Source of the DNA: Escherichia phage vB_EcoM_ACG-C40
Direction: 5' to 3' (one strand)
DNA: 64,000 nucleotides
Sequence record: NC_019399.1
Notes under the pieces: generated by a model
Told to the model about the DNA's origin: nothing
Databases searched by the model: none
The model's input: only the letters and a program-made list of their open reading frames with translations
In this document: in pieces, positions 2,864-64,000 of the stretch
How positions within the stretch are numbered: the first letter of the stretch is position 1
Layout: each line of letters starts with the position of its first letter
Made by a program: the position numbers and the translations under genes

Positions 2864-3190
2864 TTATTTCATATTATTGAAATATTCTTCAGCAATTTCA
2901 TCATTATCATGATAAACTTTAGAAGACAGTTTAACATAACTTTCAGCAGTGAACATGTTAATCACAACCTTTACAGTATACCACTGACCGTCTTCATTAC
3001 CCATTACTGCATAAGTTTCAAACATCGGATGGTCAGGACCGATAACTTTAATATCATTCACTGTACGACCGAAATCTTCTGAAACACATTTCATAAAGAA
3101 GTTGAACAGCTCACCGTAATTATCCATTTCATTCTCCAAGTTGTTTTCTGTATCAGTAGTTGATAGTTGTATAGTACCATGGAAGGACAA
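2864..3190 (-). CDS. hypothetical acidic protein (108 aa)
   Basis: Intact ORF with ATG start at 3190. Confidence 0.5.
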   Translation of the reverse strand: MSFHGTIQLSTTDTENNLENEMDNYGELFNFFMKCVSEDFGRTVNDIKVIGPDHPMFETYAVMGNEDGQWYTVKVVINMFTAESYVKLSSKVYHDNDEIAEEYFNNMK

Positions 3191-3333
3191 GGATGTAAAC
3201 CGTTTTGTGAAAAAATTTTTAAAAAGTTTTGGGGAATTCTAGGGCAGGGAGGGGAAATCAAAGGATAGGATAATATATTATAAAGGGTAGAAACTAAATG
3301 ATGTCTAGAGAGGCCTGGAAAGGCCTAGATACC

Positions 3334-3360
3334 AAAAAGCCCCAACCTTTCGGTTGGGGC
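3334..3360 (-). terminator. rho-independent terminator (minus strand)
   Basis: Minus strand GCCCCAACC-GAAA-GGTTGGGGC followed by TTTTT. Confidence 0.65.
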
Positions 3361-3364
3361 TAAG

Positions 3365-3673
3365 CCTTGCGGCAACCTTGTCGGGGTTCCACCTGCTAAG
3401 GCAAGTGTTTGTACGAAACGCCGGGATTCGAACCCGGTTATTAAGCAGTTGACGCTACTCAATATTTTTTAAAAGGCCATATCTCGACCATATCCGAACG
3501 TTCCGTCAAAAACGCTACTCGGCTTACGGCAAAGATATTTCCTCGAATCGATAATTCGGTGCGCCGTTTCTGCTGTGATGTAAGGGGACATTAACAAAAC
3601 ATAAAGATTTATTAATGCCAGTCCTTAAACAGGGAACATCAGTCCGACGACTTACCGGTAGCGACCCGGTTTC
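3365..3673 (-). ncRNA. candidate small stable RNA region downstream of tRNA-Arg
   Basis: About 300 nt with no ORF, a tRNA-like T-arm (CCGGG-TTCGAAT-CCCGG on minus strand), duplicated GAGTAGCGT motif, ends at terminator 3334..3360. Confidence 0.25.
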
Positions 3674-4042: not shown

Positions 4043-4118
4043 TGGTCGAGGCAGTAGGGATCGAACCTACGACCCAGGACTTAGAAGGTCCTTGCTCTTC
4101 CTTCTGAGCTATGCCCCG
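4043..4118 (-). tRNA. tRNA-Arg (anticodon UCU)
   Basis: 76-nt cloverleaf folded by hand; anticodon loop CTTCTAA; T-loop TTCGATC; encoded CCA. Confidence 0.8.
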
Positions 4119-4122
4119 TAAT

Positions 4123-4198
4123 TGGGGTGACCGATGGGAGTCGAACCCATGACTACGAGAATCACAATCTCGAGTTCTACCAACTGAACTACGGCCAC
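4123..4198 (-). tRNA. tRNA-His (anticodon GUG)
   Basis: 76 nt; acceptor GTGGCCG/CGGTCAC; anticodon loop TTGTGAT; discriminator C; CCA encoded; no encoded G-1. Confidence 0.7.
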
Positions 4199-4312
4199 AT
4201 TAATACCTACTCCAACAATCATGATGTCTTCACACGAAATTAAGAGAAGAGTGATCAGTTCAACCCCTATAATCGCGTCAAGTAGATATTAATGTGACAG
4301 TTGTCACAAATT

Positions 4313-4387
4313 TGGCGGACGTGATAGGATTCGAACCTATAACCAATCGCTTAACAGGCGATCGCTCTGCCATTGAGCTACACATCC
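4313..4387 (-). tRNA. tRNA-Asn (anticodon GUU)
   Basis: 75 nt; anticodon stem ATCGC/GCGAT, loop CTGTTAA; discriminator G; CCA encoded. Confidence 0.75.
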
Positions 4388-4391
4388 AAAT

Positions 4392-4478
4392 TGGTGGGGA
4401 GTGATGGAGTCGAACCACCCGAGTCGCAATGACAATGAATTTACAGTCCACACCGCTACCTCTACGGGATAACTCCCC
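4392..4478 (-). tRNA. tRNA-Tyr (anticodon GUA), long variable arm
   Basis: 87 nt; anticodon loop CTGTAAA; T-arm GGTGG-TTCGACT-CCATC; discriminator A; CCA encoded. Confidence 0.7.
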
Positions 4479-4490
4479 TAATTCATAATT

Positions 4491-4565
4491 TGGTGGCCCT
4501 GGGTGGAATTGAACCACCATCTGGCGATTATGAGTCGCTTGCTTGAACCTTCCAGCTACAGGGCC
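4491..4565 (-). tRNA. tRNA with CAU anticodon (Met, or Ile if lysidine-modified)
   Basis: 75 nt; anticodon loop CTCATAA; T-arm GGTGG-TTCAATT-CCACC; CCA encoded. Confidence 0.7.
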
Positions 4566-4566
4566 T

Positions 4567-4642
4567 TGGTGCTGATTGACGGAATCGAACCGCCGACCTT
4601 CTCATTACAAGTGAGTTGCTCTACCTACTGAGCTAAATCAGC
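4567..4642 (-). tRNA. tRNA-Thr (anticodon UGU)
   Basis: 76 nt; D-arm GCTC-AGTAGGTA-GAGC; anticodon loop CTTGTAA; CCA encoded. Confidence 0.8.
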
Positions 4643-4647
4643 AAAAC

Positions 4648-4737
4648 TGGCGGAGGCGATAGGATTTGAACCTATGAGTCGCCGGAGCGACTGCCGGTTT
4701 TCAAGACCGGTGCATTAAACCACTCTGCCACACCTCC
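4648..4737 (-). tRNA. tRNA-Ser (anticodon UGA), long variable arm
   Basis: 90 nt; anticodon stem CCGGT/ACCGG, loop CTTGAAA; CCA encoded. Confidence 0.8.
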
Positions 4738-4739
4738 AG

Positions 4740-4813
4740 TCTCCATACAAGGATTTGAACCTTGGACCTCCTGATCCCAAATCAGGCGCTCTACCAAACT
4801 GAGCTACACGGAG
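4740..4813 (-). tRNA. tRNA-Pro (anticodon UGG), CCA not encoded
   Basis: 74 nt; anticodon stem CCTGA/TCAGG, loop TTTGGGA; T-arm CAAGG-TTCAAAT-CCTTG. Confidence 0.75.
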
Positions 4814-4823
4814 TAAATTGAAT

Positions 4824-4897
<74 letters not shown>

Positions 4898-4902
4898 AAA
4901 TT

Positions 4903-4989
4903 TGGTGCGAGAAGTGGGACTCGAACCCACAAGGAAATCATTCCGCAGCATTTTAAGTGCTGTGCCTTTACCAATTTGACCATTCTCGC
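4903..4989 (-). tRNA. tRNA-Leu (anticodon UAA), long variable arm
   Basis: 87 nt; anticodon stem CAGCA/TGCTG, loop CTTAAAA; CCA encoded. Confidence 0.8.
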
Positions 4990-4995
4990 GTTATA

Positions 4996-5628
4996 TTATT
5001 TATTACGTGAAAAAGACTGTTCTATCAATTCTGGACACTTTCGTTCTATCCATTTTCTAGCTTTTTGTGGGCTTATACCTATTATTTTAGCAGCTTTACT
5101 AACCCATCCAAATTTAGAATAATCGATTTTAACTAATTCTTCGTAAATTTCATCAGTTAAAATCTTTTCATTAATATTTACCAGTAAATGATATAATTTG
5201 TTATCATTAGCAATTTTAATGAATCTTTTATAGTTTCCGCCTTTACTTAAACCTAATGAAGTAATTGCAGATGATATAGTAGCCGAATTTAATAATGCGT
5301 TTAAAATTTCTTCATCACTAACATTATAACGCTTTTTATTATTTTTAATATTTTTACCAGCAAAAGTATCAGTTTGCGAATGACAGTTTGGACATAATAA
5401 TCTTAAATTTGATTTAAGATGATTTTTGTTATTTCCATCAATATGGTCTAATTGTAGAACAATATGCTTATTTTGCCATTTTGAAATTTTACAAATTGCA
5501 CACTCATATGGAAAAATATTTTCTTTTATTATTTTGTCTTTTAGCTTTCCTGTACTAAAATTTGGATGTTTTCCTTCAAAAATTTCAGCTAATTTAGTAT
5601 CCATAATATGATTCCCAATTATTAACAA
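4996..5628 (-). CDS. HNH homing endonuclease with C-terminal helix-turn-helix-like DNA-binding region
   Basis: Zinc-finger HNH motif CAICK...LQLDHIDGNNKNH...NLRLLCPNCH; ORF start at 5628 is TTG, first ATG is at 5604. Confidence 0.75.
   Translation of the reverse strand: MLIIGNHIMDTKLAEIFEGKHPNFSTGKLKDKIIKENIFPYECAICKISKWQNKHIVLQLDHIDGNNKNHLKSNLRLLCPNCHSQTDTFAGKNIKNNKKRYNVSDEEILNALLNSATISSAITSLGLSKGGNYKRFIKIANDNKLYHLLVNINEKILTDEIYEELVKIDYSKFGWVSKAAKIIGISPQKARKWIERKCPELIEQSFSRNK
4996..5628 (-). mobile_element. freestanding homing-endonuclease gene abutting the 5' end of the tRNA cluster
   Basis: HNH ORF ends 6 nt from tRNA-Leu. Confidence 0.5.
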
Positions 5629-6403: not shown

Positions 6404-6588
6404 TATTCACCTTTAGAAATTTTATCCATAACAATAGCAATTAAACCAATTAAAAATGCTACTACAAGTGAAAACACATTTTCTGCTGTAGTCAATAATC
6501 CACATATAAATCCAACAAACATTGAAAAACTAAAAGCGGAAGCAGAAATTGCAATAGCAACATTTCGAATTAATTCACAACGTTTCAT
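6403..6588 (-). CDS. small hydrophobic membrane protein (61 aa)
   Basis: Two hydrophobic segments (VAIAISASAFSFSMFVGFICGLL, FSLVVAFLIGLIAIVM); preceded by a PeSL-like promoter. Confidence 0.5.
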   Translation of the reverse strand: MKRCELIRNVAIAISASAFSFSMFVGFICGLLTTAENVFSLVVAFLIGLIAIVMDKISKGE

Positions 6589-6607
6589 TTTATTCTCCTC
6601 AGTAGTA

Positions 6608-6646
6608 GATAGGGTAATAGTATCACTACCCTATCTAAAAGTAAAC
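6608..6646 (-). promoter_or_regulatory. early-promoter stem-loop (PeSL-like)
   Basis: Minus strand GTTTAC-TTTTA-GATAGGGTA-GTGATACTAT-TACCCTATC; -10-like TACTAT in the loop. Confidence 0.55.
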
Positions 6647-6880
6647 TTATTTTTTACGAAAAATTGATTTATTTTCTGCTGCCCATTTTTCAATAACTGC
6701 AGCAGGACCAGTAACAACAATTTTATCACCGTAATCTTCTGCGGCGAGTTGACCGAAATTATCTAATGCATCACGAAGAACTCCATGAGGCATTTCACCC
6801 ATTTTATCTTTCTTGCCAGTGTAAATAAACTCAACTTTTACATCAGCAGTTTCAGCAATAAATTCTTGGTAAGTTTTCAT
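6647..6880 (-). CDS. internal head protein with capsid-targeting leader (MKTYQEFIAE)
   Basis: ORF 6647..6892; leader matches the T4 internal-protein targeting sequence as I recall it, so start placed at ATG 6880. Confidence 0.65.
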   Translation of the reverse strand: MKTYQEFIAETADVKVEFIYTGKKDKMGEMPHGVLRDALDNFGQLAAEDYGDKIVVTGPAAVIEKWAAENKSIFRKK

Positions 6881-6904
6881 TTTGATTTCCATTTGGTTTT
6901 GTTT

Positions 6905-6944
6905 TGATAGGGTAATAGTATCACAACTAAAACCCTATGTAAAC
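6905..6944 (-). promoter_or_regulatory. early-promoter stem-loop (PeSL-like)
   Basis: Minus strand GTTTAC-ATAGGGT...TACTAT...ACCCTAT; flanking sequence near-identical to the copy at 7246..7284. Confidence 0.55.
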
Positions 6945-6956
6945 AACTTTGTGAAA

Positions 6957-7214
6957 TTATTTTAAATCTTCTAATCGTTTCTTCATCTTAGAACCATTTT
7001 TAGCAATTTCTCCTGCATCGGAGCATAATGCTAAAAGTGCTTTAACTTTAGTTTGGTCTCCTTTAAAAGATGAAGGATCGACCGCAGCAGCAAGTTCTTT
7101 AATACGAGAGAAAAGACGCTCAGCTTCAGCTAAAGCCATTCCAAGCTTTACTTCCATACCGTGGGAAGATTCAGTGATAGTAGTTTTTGTAGCAAACTCT
7201 TTGAAAGTTTTCAT
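6957..7214 (-). CDS. internal head protein candidate with variant capsid-targeting leader (MKTFKEFATK...ITE)
   Basis: 85-aa ORF; leader resembles MKTYQEF; candidate gp21 cleavage site after ITE. Confidence 0.55.
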   Translation of the reverse strand: MKTFKEFATKTTITESSHGMEVKLGMALAEAERLFSRIKELAAAVDPSSFKGDQTKVKALLALCSDAGEIAKNGSKMKKRLEDLK

Positions 7215-7245
7215 TTTTATTTTCCTAATTAATTTGATGAGGTAA

Positions 7246-7284
7246 TAGTATCACTACCTCATCAGTATGTAAACAACTTTGTGA
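7246..7284 (-). promoter_or_regulatory. early-promoter stem-loop (PeSL-like)
   Basis: Minus strand GTTTAC-ATACT-GATGAGGTA-GTGATACTAT-TACCTCATCA. Confidence 0.55.
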
Positions 7285-7286
7285 AA

Positions 7287-7983
<697 letters not shown>

Positions 7984-7984
<1 letters not shown>

Positions 7985-8709
7985 TATAGTACCTTTAGTG
8001 TATTTTTAATTTTAGAAAAAAGTTCTTCAAGAGAACCATCGTTTGTAATTACTAAATCGCCATCACGAATTGGCAATCCAGCTTCTGTAATATGTGTATC
8101 ATTGGATTTTTGACCAGGACGAACTACATGAATTACTGTAGCACCCATCGCCCTAGCCGCATCCATTTCATGATCTTGACGAGTATCAGGAACGATATAA
8201 TAATCATAACCTGAGTTAAATTTATCAAGATAATCTAAAGCAAATAATTTTACCCAGTACATGCGGTCGAAGTTATTAACAATCAAATCCGTACCTAGGG
8301 CTTGCATCAGACGACGGACTGACCATTGATCTTCAATATTATTTATAACGTCAATAATCTTGTTAAATGCTACGGAATTAACTGATTCTTGTCCTTCGTC
8401 ATCAAAAACAAACACACCCTTAATTGGGCTTTTACCATTAAGATAGCAAAATGCTTGTTCCATAATCGTGATTACTTCTAATTTAGTCAGATTTAAATTA
8501 GTTTCACGATCATAGTCAATTCCTTCAAACTCTTTACGAGTTAAGCAAGGATAGTCAGTGTTTGCTGCAAATACGCCCCATGCATAAGCCAATGCATCCT
8601 TAATAGGACCTGCAAGTTGGTATTTAACTGCAGAATAATTGCTCATGATAAAATCAGCAGTAGTATCTTTTCCACTACGCTTTACACCGCTTAAAAAGAT
8701 TAGTTTCAT
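7984..8709 (-). CDS. 1: gp1 deoxynucleoside monophosphate kinase
   Basis: P-loop GVKRSGKDT; start placed at ATG 8709 (MKLIFLSG...) after GAGGAG RBS; the listed ORF begins 13 codons upstream. Confidence 0.85.
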
Positions 8710-63475: not shown

Positions 63476-63501
63476 TTTTATTCTCCGAGATGTTTAATTG
63501 C

Positions 63502-63541
63502 GGTACAGGTATATAATATCATATCCTGTACCAAAGTAAAC
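63502..63541 (-). promoter_or_regulatory. early-promoter stem-loop (PeSL-like)
   Basis: Minus strand GTTTAC-TTT-GGTACAGG-ATATGATATTATATA-CCTGTACC. Confidence 0.55.
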
Positions 63542-63876: not shown

Positions 63877-63883
63877 TTTATTC

Positions 63884-63934
63884 TCCTTTGTTTGTGTAAG
63901 ATAATACTATCACAAAGGAACCATACTGTAAACA
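63884..63934 (-). promoter_or_regulatory. early-promoter stem-loop (PeSL-like)
   Basis: Minus strand GTTTAC...TCCTTTGT-(loop with TAGTAT)-ACAAAGGA; upstream flank matches the copies at 6944 and 7284. Confidence 0.5.
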
Positions 63935-63949
63935 ACTTTGTGCAATCTT

Positions 63950-63981
63950 TGGAAAATAAAAAAGGACTCCCGAAGGAGTCC
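63950..63981 (-). terminator. rho-independent terminator (minus strand) at the window end
   Basis: Minus strand GGACTCC-TTCG-GGAGTCC followed by TTTTTTATTTTCC. Confidence 0.6.
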
Positions 63982-64000
63982 TCAACTTATGCTTTCTGCT

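Follow-up and report, generated by a model that had tools for sequence, protein, structure and literature searches.

Promoters and genes in the window

We analysed a stretch of 64,000 nucleotides (nt) from Escherichia phage vB_EcoM_ACG-C40 (sequence record NC_019399.1), hereafter the window, with respect to a set of early promoters on its minus strand that lie in front of small genes and that, at five of six sites, are combined with an inverted repeat around the -10 element. The window is from a Tequatrovirus (T4-like phage) with approximately 97-99% identity to sequenced relatives (in the stretch from 6 to 9 kb, 99.1% to phages FL23 and FL44, and 98-99% to many others), and its plus strand corresponds to the plus strand of T4 in GenBank. 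At the left end, genes 4, 2, 3, 1, 57A and 57B/Acb1 lie on the minus strand. They are followed on this strand by two open reading frames (ORFs) of 85 and 81 amino acids (aa) that resemble internal protein (IP) genes, and then by trna.4, trna.3, trna.2, the tRNA cluster, e.8 and e.6. Gene 30 (DNA ligase) and 30.1 to 30.8 are found at the right end.

Both strands of the window were scanned with the strict pattern GTTTAC-N17/18-TAnnAT. This gave seven matches, as compared to 0.59 expected (100 shuffles, with a maximum of three), and all seven are on the minus strand. They comprise six sites that an earlier note on this sequence had pointed out, here called sites 1 to 6, and a further one at 3171-3200. 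TGn precedes the -10 in every case, and a Shine-Dalgarno sequence and an ATG follow downstream of each promoter. The layout 'UP/-35/TGn/-10' is shared with the early promoters of T4, for which it has been described (PMC2988021); the T4 GenBank and RefSeq records themselves contain no promoter annotation.

Hairpins around the -10

At five of the six sites, the extended -10 lies in the loop of a strong inverted repeat, with z-scores of the RNA fold (z) from -4.0 to -7.3, and at none of these five did any of 200 shuffles fold as stably as the observed hairpin. Site 1 (7235-7274, minus strand, as for all sites) is the promoter 5′ of the 85-aa IP gene, with GTTTAC at 7274-7269 and TGn plus TACTAT at 7248-7245; its arms TGATGAGGTA (7264-7255) and TACCTCATCA (7244-7235) form 10 bp with 100% complementarity around the loop GTGATACTAT (z -4.2), and an identical element sits upstream of T4 ipI. 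Site 2 (6907-6944) precedes the 81-aa IP gene, and here the 5′ arm ATAGGGT (6938-6932) comes directly after the -35 and pairs over 7 bp with ACCCTAT (6913-6907; z -4.0), leaving a loop of 18 nt that holds TGn and the -10. At site 3 (6606-6646), 5′ of trna.4, the arms TAGATAGGGTA (6637-6627) and TACCCTATCTA (6616-6606) form 11 bp around the same loop, GTGATACTAT (z -4.7). Site 4 (2826-2863) follows e.8 and lies 5′ of the e.6 homologue; its 10 bp are made by ACAGGCTCAT (2857-2848) and ATGAGCCTGT (2835-2826), the latter beginning within the -10 TATTAT, and it has the strongest z (-7.3). Finally, site 5 (63502-63541), 5′ of 30.7, has arms GGTACAGG (63532-63525) and CCTGTACC (63509-63502) with 8 bp and further inner AT pairs with one bulge (z -4.4).

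Site 6 (63883-63933), the promoter 5′ of 30.8, has TAGTAT as its -10 and no strong hairpin there (z -1.7; 11 of 200 shuffles were equally stable). The seventh strict promoter (3171-3200, minus strand), which lies 5′ of e.8, has no hairpin (z +0.6) and serves as an internal control. The earlier note had ascribed GTTTAC and an inverted repeat enclosing the -10 to all six sites; the promoters are found at six of six and the strong hairpin at five, whereas site 6 is weak and pairs its spacer with the ribosome-binding site instead. The positions agree to within 1-2 nt, except that site 1 lies at 7235-7274 and not at 7246-7284. The observation is thus largely confirmed, in that five sites are as described and the sixth is of a different kind.

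The position of the stem relative to the promoter differs between the sites: the 5′ arm adjoins TGn at sites 1 and 3, adjoins the -35 at sites 2 and 4, and is intermediate at site 5. The stem sequences are unrelated between the six copies. Because the stems lie in different registers, RNAalifold gave no consensus pair for the six promoter-aligned copies, and a covariance model built from them, as had been proposed, would find no shared structure and would capture the promoter only. We therefore replaced it by register-free statistics. The Rfam scan returned tRNAs only and no match for the hairpin elements, and together with the lack of consensus pairs this means that the elements do not make up a single structured-RNA family that one covariance model could represent.

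The spacers of sites 2 (6923-6944) and 3 (6623-6646) resemble circular permutations of each other (ATAGGGT+TTTAG as compared to TTTTAG+ATAGGGT), and the shared 3′ arm, ACCCTAT, thus finds its partner at two alternative places. Orthologues from other phages likewise have one or the other of these spacer configurations.

Covariation was found among the orthologues of single promoters. In the hairpin upstream of trna.4, compared across ten phages, 91% of the cells are paired, and sliding of the 3′ partners lowers this figure to 38-52%; five of the nine pairs are altered on both sides (14 cells), and none of 500 shuffles reached the observed covariation score. In the hairpin downstream of e.8, a C-G pair of the window is T-A in T4, and the 30.7 stem GGTACAGG/CCTGTACC is kept in T4, in Mosigvirus ST0 and in Gaprivervirus VR26. 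From these comparisons we take the pairing to be under selection among orthologues. The claim that the structure is selected therefore holds up, while the compensatory changes that had been seen between the six copies apply loosely at best, since true covariation resides among orthologues of one promoter, the trna.4 promoter in particular, and not across the six sites.

Alternatively, a dimeric DNA-binding protein, for instance a factor that shuts off early promoters, might use a repeat of this kind as its operator. It is centred on the -10 and spans +1, which is the classic position for a repressor, and the mechanism of early-promoter shut-off is said to be incompletely understood (PMC3014915). 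However, the arms differ wholly between promoters in both sequence and register and covary among orthologues, which argues for pairing and not for a recognised sequence, and an inverted repeat is present in a minority of early promoters (see below). We regard an operator as extremely improbable.

Which strand folds

The mismatches within the stems, counted outside the fixed TGn and -10 bases, are unequally distributed, with 16 G·T as compared to 4 A·C (p 0.012). Furthermore, each of the six hairpins of the window gains 1.1-3.8 kcal/mol in stability when the sense strand and not the other one is folded. Folding of the sense strand is therefore favoured, and these biases favour as the folding molecule most likely the RNA that reads through from upstream.

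Since the non-template DNA strand has the same sequence as the RNA, the G·T bias also fits a reading in which the hairpin forms on the non-template DNA and exposes TGn and the -10 single-stranded in the loop, where they would attract sigma-70 as a pre-melted bait. If this were true, it would make these promoters respond to supercoiling or to the passage of a replication or transcription fork, but we consider it very unlikely.

Hairpins in a wider sample of promoters

For a view beyond the window, promoters were taken from IMG/VR by the promoter motif alone (GTTTAC-N14-GTGATACTAT), without requiring a stem. Of the 49 non-redundant promoters so obtained, the -10 is enclosed by a perfect inverted repeat of 7 bp or more in 11 (null mean, 1.9) and of 10 bp or more in seven (null, 0). 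When the spacer was paired with its own discriminator, 14.6% of 89 promoters formed a duplex of -10 kcal/mol or stronger, as opposed to 1.2% of cross-pairs (p 5e-5). In all, the hairpin is present in approximately 15-25% of such promoters. T4 promoters that carry it are those of ipI, trna.4, 30.7 and, as judged by eye, e.7. In the e.7 hairpin, one base of the 5′ arm is given as an ambiguous N in the T4 RefSeq entry (ataggctNatg; NC_000866 at approximately 70339, corresponding to L001 at approximately 6340). A metagenome scan for neighbours of trna.4 produced nine loci only.

The hairpin is thus a real minority feature that is concentrated in the regions covered by the window. Two refinements did not hold up in this sample. 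A fixed register with TGn and -10 as the loop was rejected as the general architecture, because only 5 of 61 non-redundant promoters fit it, and a preference of hairpin promoters for T at position 4 of the -10, which would extend the stem by a G·U pair, disappeared on counting (10/15 as compared to 49/74).

These numbers also bear on whether the hairpins might be chance products, or by-products of paralogous copies or of recombination, with no selection on pairing. Sites 1-3 are indeed paralogous repeats of approximately 70 nt, and ATAGGGT/ACCCTAT is common to sites 2 and 3 in permuted positions. However, the stems of sites 4 and 5 are unrelated, no shuffle in 200 folds as well, the null models give no stem of at least 10 bp where seven are observed, and there are compensatory changes in orthologues. 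The shuffles, the IMG/VR null models and the orthologue covariation together rule out a by-product as the full explanation, and we give it a negligible chance.

Upstream stop codons and terminators

What precedes the promoter differs between hairpin and hairpin-less sites. At sites 1-5, the stop codon of the upstream gene lies 0-17 nt before GTTTAC, while site 6 comes after a terminator instead: a canonical intrinsic terminator at 63956-63983 (minus strand), consisting of AGGACTCC-TTCG-GGAGTCCT and a T-run, is found approximately 20 nt upstream of its promoter. A second canonical terminator, at 3338-3361, precedes the control promoter at 3171-3200. Within the window, the hairpin is present at all five promoters that adjoin an upstream stop codon, and neither of the two that follow a canonical terminator has a strong one. 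The wider sample shows the same trend, with the hairpin in 15 of 41 promoters as compared to 1 of 13 after a canonical terminator (Fisher p 0.08).

One reading of this pattern is that the hairpins are themselves terminators or attenuators, which halt the RNA polymerase arriving from the upstream gene and make the cassettes autonomous transcription units. A stem-loop of the comparable element in phage RB49 lowered lacZ expression to the same degree as rrnB T1 (PMC2839356), and in both the window and the wider sample hairpin promoters tend to have no canonical terminator before them. Like intrinsic terminators, the window hairpins are stable, intergenic and placed right after a stop codon; unlike them, they have AT-rich stems, loops of 10-18 nt and no U-tract, in place of a G+C stem with a U-run. 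Since the terminator scan also gave no match, efficient intrinsic termination is unlikely. Moreover, textbook terminators are used by this phage elsewhere in the window, at 3338-3361 and 63956-63983, and the RB49 stem that was assayed is G/C-rich and not homologous. Termination in the strict sense thus strikes us as a rather unlikely role.

Repeated modules and gene-content junctions at the IP locus

Sites 1-3 lie in an IP locus with a direct repeat of approximately 70 nt in three copies and a further repeat of 44 nt, all on the minus strand. Taking the copy at 6903-6972, which includes the last codons of the 85-aa IP gene, as reference, the copy at 7233-7302 has 86% identity and includes the last codons (DLK and stop) of 57B, and that at 6605-6674, which runs from the end of the upstream ORF through a UP-like AT tract, the -35, the spacer and the -10 to the 3′ arm, has 61%. 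The 44-nt repeat (7179-7222; partner at 6845-6888) covers the start region of the 85-aa IP gene, with its Shine-Dalgarno sequence, ATG and capsid-targeting N-terminus (MKTFKEF...). The IP-like cassette ORFs between these modules are the one of 85 aa (6957-7214), which differs from T4 IPI and is missing in contig L118, and the one of 81 aa (6647-6892; MKTYQEFIAE...), which is missing in T4. As the 70-nt module reaches back over the last codons of the upstream ORF, both 57B (7287-7302) and the 85-aa IP gene (6957-6972) terminate with the codons D-L-K-stop on the minus strand, and these shared endings would be a recombination footprint within coding sequence.

Across 18 phages, the interval between 57B and trna.4 holds from 0 to 5 IP cassettes. 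The trna.4 promoter of T4 is composed of the left side of window site 2 and the right side of site 3, with one mismatch per side and the switch inside a shared 19-nt stretch, GTGATACTATTACCCTATC; this is the position expected if the 81-aa IP cassette was deleted or inserted by recombination between modules. In contig L118, precisely the cassette between sites 1 and 2 is missing. These two natural variants match exactly the products that recombination between neighbouring elements would give. At site 4, the window lacks the e.7 gene of T4, with the junction (2825/2826) at the 3′ edge of the hairpin. In 17 relatives, every alignment end at the IP locus falls inside the repeated modules, for example at 7179-7195 in the 44-nt repeat. 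The association with gene-content breakpoints that the earlier note anticipated thus holds for sites 1-4, where modules and junctions coincide as in a hyperplastic region, but, within the genus, not for sites 5 and 6. In Mosigvirus and Gaprivervirus, a breakpoint seemed to lie at 63541, but it was discarded, since only DNA similarity drops there and 30.8 is still present.

With junctions located inside or at the edge of hairpins, it could be argued that the inverted repeat is a DNA recombination device, which folds in single-stranded DNA and stalls synthesis or is cut by phage nucleases, thereby creating a hotspot, so that cassette shuffling would be the selected function and any RNA hairpin incidental. 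A mini-circle crossover was mapped to the loop of one such stem-loop in a comparable system, and a recombination protein that binds the stem was speculated upon (Arbiol, PMC2839356); in addition, the G·T bias is compatible with the non-template DNA strand. On the other hand, a DNA structure that can be formed by both strands would be expected to accept G·T as readily as A·C, which is not what the 16 to 4 count indicates, and plain homology accounts for the crossovers, given identical stretches of 19 nt and approximately 33 nt. AT-rich stems of 7-11 bp with loops of 10-18 nt extrude poorly, and the stems of sites 5 and 6 are kept across genera without insertions or deletions. We therefore see a DNA device as unlikely, if worth keeping in mind.

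Site 6 and pairing with the ribosome-binding site

At site 6, the best helix is not around the -10. Instead, it is formed between the spacer UUCCUUUGU and the ribosome-binding site of 30.8, ACAAAGGAG; in coordinates, spacer TTCCTTTGT (63920-63912) pairs with ACAAAGGAG (63891-63883), the Shine-Dalgarno sequence. In T4, the duplex between the spacer and the translation initiation region has -11.3 kcal/mol. Among the 89 sampled promoters, seven (approximately 8%) form a duplex of -12 kcal/mol or stronger between spacer and own ribosome-binding site, as compared to 1.4% of cross-pairs, and site 6 belongs in the tail of this class. One example is GTTTACTTTCTCCTCTTTAT...ATAAAGAGGAGAAA, with -18 kcal/mol. 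The subclass with anti-Shine-Dalgarno spacers includes, for example, the IMG/VR loci L025, L006, L110 and L106 and, in T4, denV (ATG at 65355), motB.2 (ATG at 8161) and 30.8.

With an anti-Shine-Dalgarno spacer, only read-through transcripts would be translationally masked. A related principle is known from T4 e, soc, 49 and I-TevI, where an internal promoter lies in the DNA for the 5′ strand of a helix, such that RNA initiated upstream folds, and RNA initiated at the promoter does not (PMC3014915). Those masking hairpins use late promoters, whereas the window promoters are early. At sites 1-5, furthermore, 12-20 nt separate the end of the helix from the Shine-Dalgarno sequence, which stays unmasked, in contrast to site 6, where UUCCUUUGU/ACAAAGGAG masks it weakly.

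Relation to promoter-early stem-loops

The earlier note interpreted the sites as promoter-early stem-loop (PeSL) elements, and this is supported: both the architecture and the location at the IP locus agree with the published descriptions (PMC2839356, PMC4122927). A PeSL is an intergenic element in which the upstream stop codon, in AT-rich sequence, is followed by an early promoter, a stem-loop, a Shine-Dalgarno sequence and ATG (Arbiol 2010, PMC2839356). By sequence, the window elements have the intergenic position next to a stop codon (sites 1-5), the early promoter with its spacing, and the Shine-Dalgarno sequence with start codon; a stem-loop is present at five sites, and at site 6 it is weak, though an upstream terminator stem is found there.

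In phages RB49 and phi1, the stem-loop is mostly between -35 and -10 or overlaps the -10, with five positional classes, and terminator and promoter activity as well as mini-circle formation were demonstrated (PMC2839356). The window elements share with these PeSLs the composite layout, the clustering among small non-essential genes and the position at junctions of indels and replacements. However, RB49 and phi1 have near-perfect TTGACA/TATAAT promoters and G/C-rich stems (GGGG...CCCC), while the window has GTTTAC as -35 and AT-rich stems. There is no sequence homology between the two, and the authors speak of analogues, not homologues; terminator activity and mini-circles are established for RB49 and phi1 only. 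According to that paper, the T-even elements of the IP locus reported by Repoila 1994 are 'PeSL-like' analogues, with T4 early promoters and weaker AT-rich stems (PMC2839356).

Closer to the window are the PeSLs of PST and T4, which belong to the same genus, have the promoter consensus TTTACW-N17-TAYWAT and are linked to differential ORFs, including differences in IP genes (Comeau 2014, PMC4122927). Five of the six sites fit this consensus, the exception being site 6 with TAGTAT. In the PST/T4 figure legend the stem-loop is placed just upstream of the promoter. The pair of terminator and promoter 5′ of 30.8, with its AGGA...TCCT stem, fits this layout ('AGNA-loop-TCNT'; PMC4122927), whereas the stem of sites 1-5 is built around the -10, and these sites have no upstream stem because the stop codon adjoins the -35. 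The T-even IP loci, as far as Repoila 1994 is reported in the two later papers, occupy the same interval between 57B and trna.4 in which sites 1-3 lie, and the IP genes between their conserved flanks, which contain promoters, vary in number and identity (PMC2839356, PMC4122927).

By architecture and context, then, the window elements are PeSL members, belonging to a functional or architectural class and not to a homologous family. The class has already been described at a known locus and is not new (Repoila 1994; Arbiol 2010; Comeau 2014). For the stems of the window, which lack a U-tract, the 'terminator' part of the PeSL definition is no more than putative.

Other features of the window

In the tRNA region, the window deviates from T4 in several respects. 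The tRNA cluster (4043-4989, minus strand) has ten genes (Arg, His, Asn, Tyr, Met/Ile-CAT, Thr, Ser, Pro, Gly and Leu) as compared to eight in T4, with His, Asn and Tyr additional and Gln absent. An insertion of approximately 620 nt relative to T4 (4996-5628, minus strand), between the tRNA cluster and trna.2, encodes an ORF of approximately 202 aa with a sub-threshold HNH match (E 0.005), which is probably a homing endonuclease. T4 segB is missing from the corresponding tRNA region. At 3411-3506 (minus strand), ARAGORN reports 'tRNA-???' in a region that aligns with T4 rnaC/rnaD (species 1/2 RNA) and has no Rfam match at the gathering score.

Discussion

Our observations can be combined into one explanation, which we hold to be probable, if by no wide measure: the elements would join an early promoter, a boundary hairpin in read-through RNA and module homology for the exchange of cassettes. 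Its observed parts are the promoter motif, the hairpins, the covariation among orthologues, the sense-strand bias and the positions of the junctions. Each site would be a strong sigma-70 early promoter of the 'UP/-35/TGn/-10' type in a gap of 60-75 nt between small early genes, and at five sites the otherwise free spacer has probably been selected for complementarity to the discriminator and +1 region, such that the sense strand would fold into a hairpin with the extended -10 as its loop. From standard sigma-70 geometry, we infer that the promoter's own transcript starts approximately 7 nt past the -10 and hence inside the 3′ arm, so that only the read-through RNA from upstream would contain the hairpin.

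On this read-through RNA, the hairpin could act as a cassette boundary, either as a barrier or stabiliser at the 3′ end or as an attenuator. It would thereby define and stabilise the 3′ end of the upstream message and insulate the promoter, substituting for the canonical terminator that precedes hairpin-less promoters. The ribosome-binding sites downstream of three of the promoters (6588-6600, 63476-63490 and 63877-63890, minus strand) consist of GGAG followed by a AATAAAATG-like sequence, the class of motif that the T4 RegB endonuclease cleaves. A cut by RegB would leave an upstream fragment that ends a few nt past the hairpin, which fits a role in protecting the 3′ end.

At the level of DNA, the repeated module of approximately 70-115 nt, with promoter, Shine-Dalgarno sequence and, in the IP locus, capsid-targeting codons, may provide homology for the T4 recombination system. 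As this system needs short homology only, whole cassettes could be inserted, deleted or swapped at the modules.

Several observations weigh against this explanation. Approximately 75-85% of T4-type early promoters have no hairpin, and between 1 and 50 kb of T4 it was found in none of nine strict early promoters; with the hairpin missing from most early promoters, it must be dispensable for promoter function and for cassette exchange in general. The association between hairpin and upstream context is merely suggestive in the wider sample (Fisher p 0.05-0.08), and no U-tract follows any of the five hairpins, none of which was flagged by the terminator scan. The G·T excess comprises 20 mismatches only, from partly related sequences, and would fit folding of the non-template DNA strand equally well. 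As to the junctions, alignment ends within conserved modules are partly expected by construction, and sites 5 and 6 are collinear with T4, without gene-content breakpoints within the genus.

A more general idea is that the spacer of an early promoter could serve as an 'origin tag' of the RNA, changing the fate of read-through transcripts only. We put this forward tentatively and hold it to be possible though doubtful, if better supported than a bait for sigma-70 on the non-template DNA. If true, the anti-Shine-Dalgarno subclass (with 30.8, denV and motB.2 among its members) would carry the masking principle of e, soc and 49 over to early promoters.

As compared to what has been described for PeSL elements, we make three modest additions: the pairing of the stem is under selection in orthologues, the strand that folds appears to be the sense strand, and the hairpin is found where no canonical terminator precedes the promoter. 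These make the function of the stem directly testable.

Injected internal proteins include anti-restriction factors. The modules would explain how small host-adaptation genes of this kind can be swapped in T4-type phages without breaking their expression: each cassette has its own promoter and ribosome-binding site, and the sequence that bounds it may double as homology for recombination.

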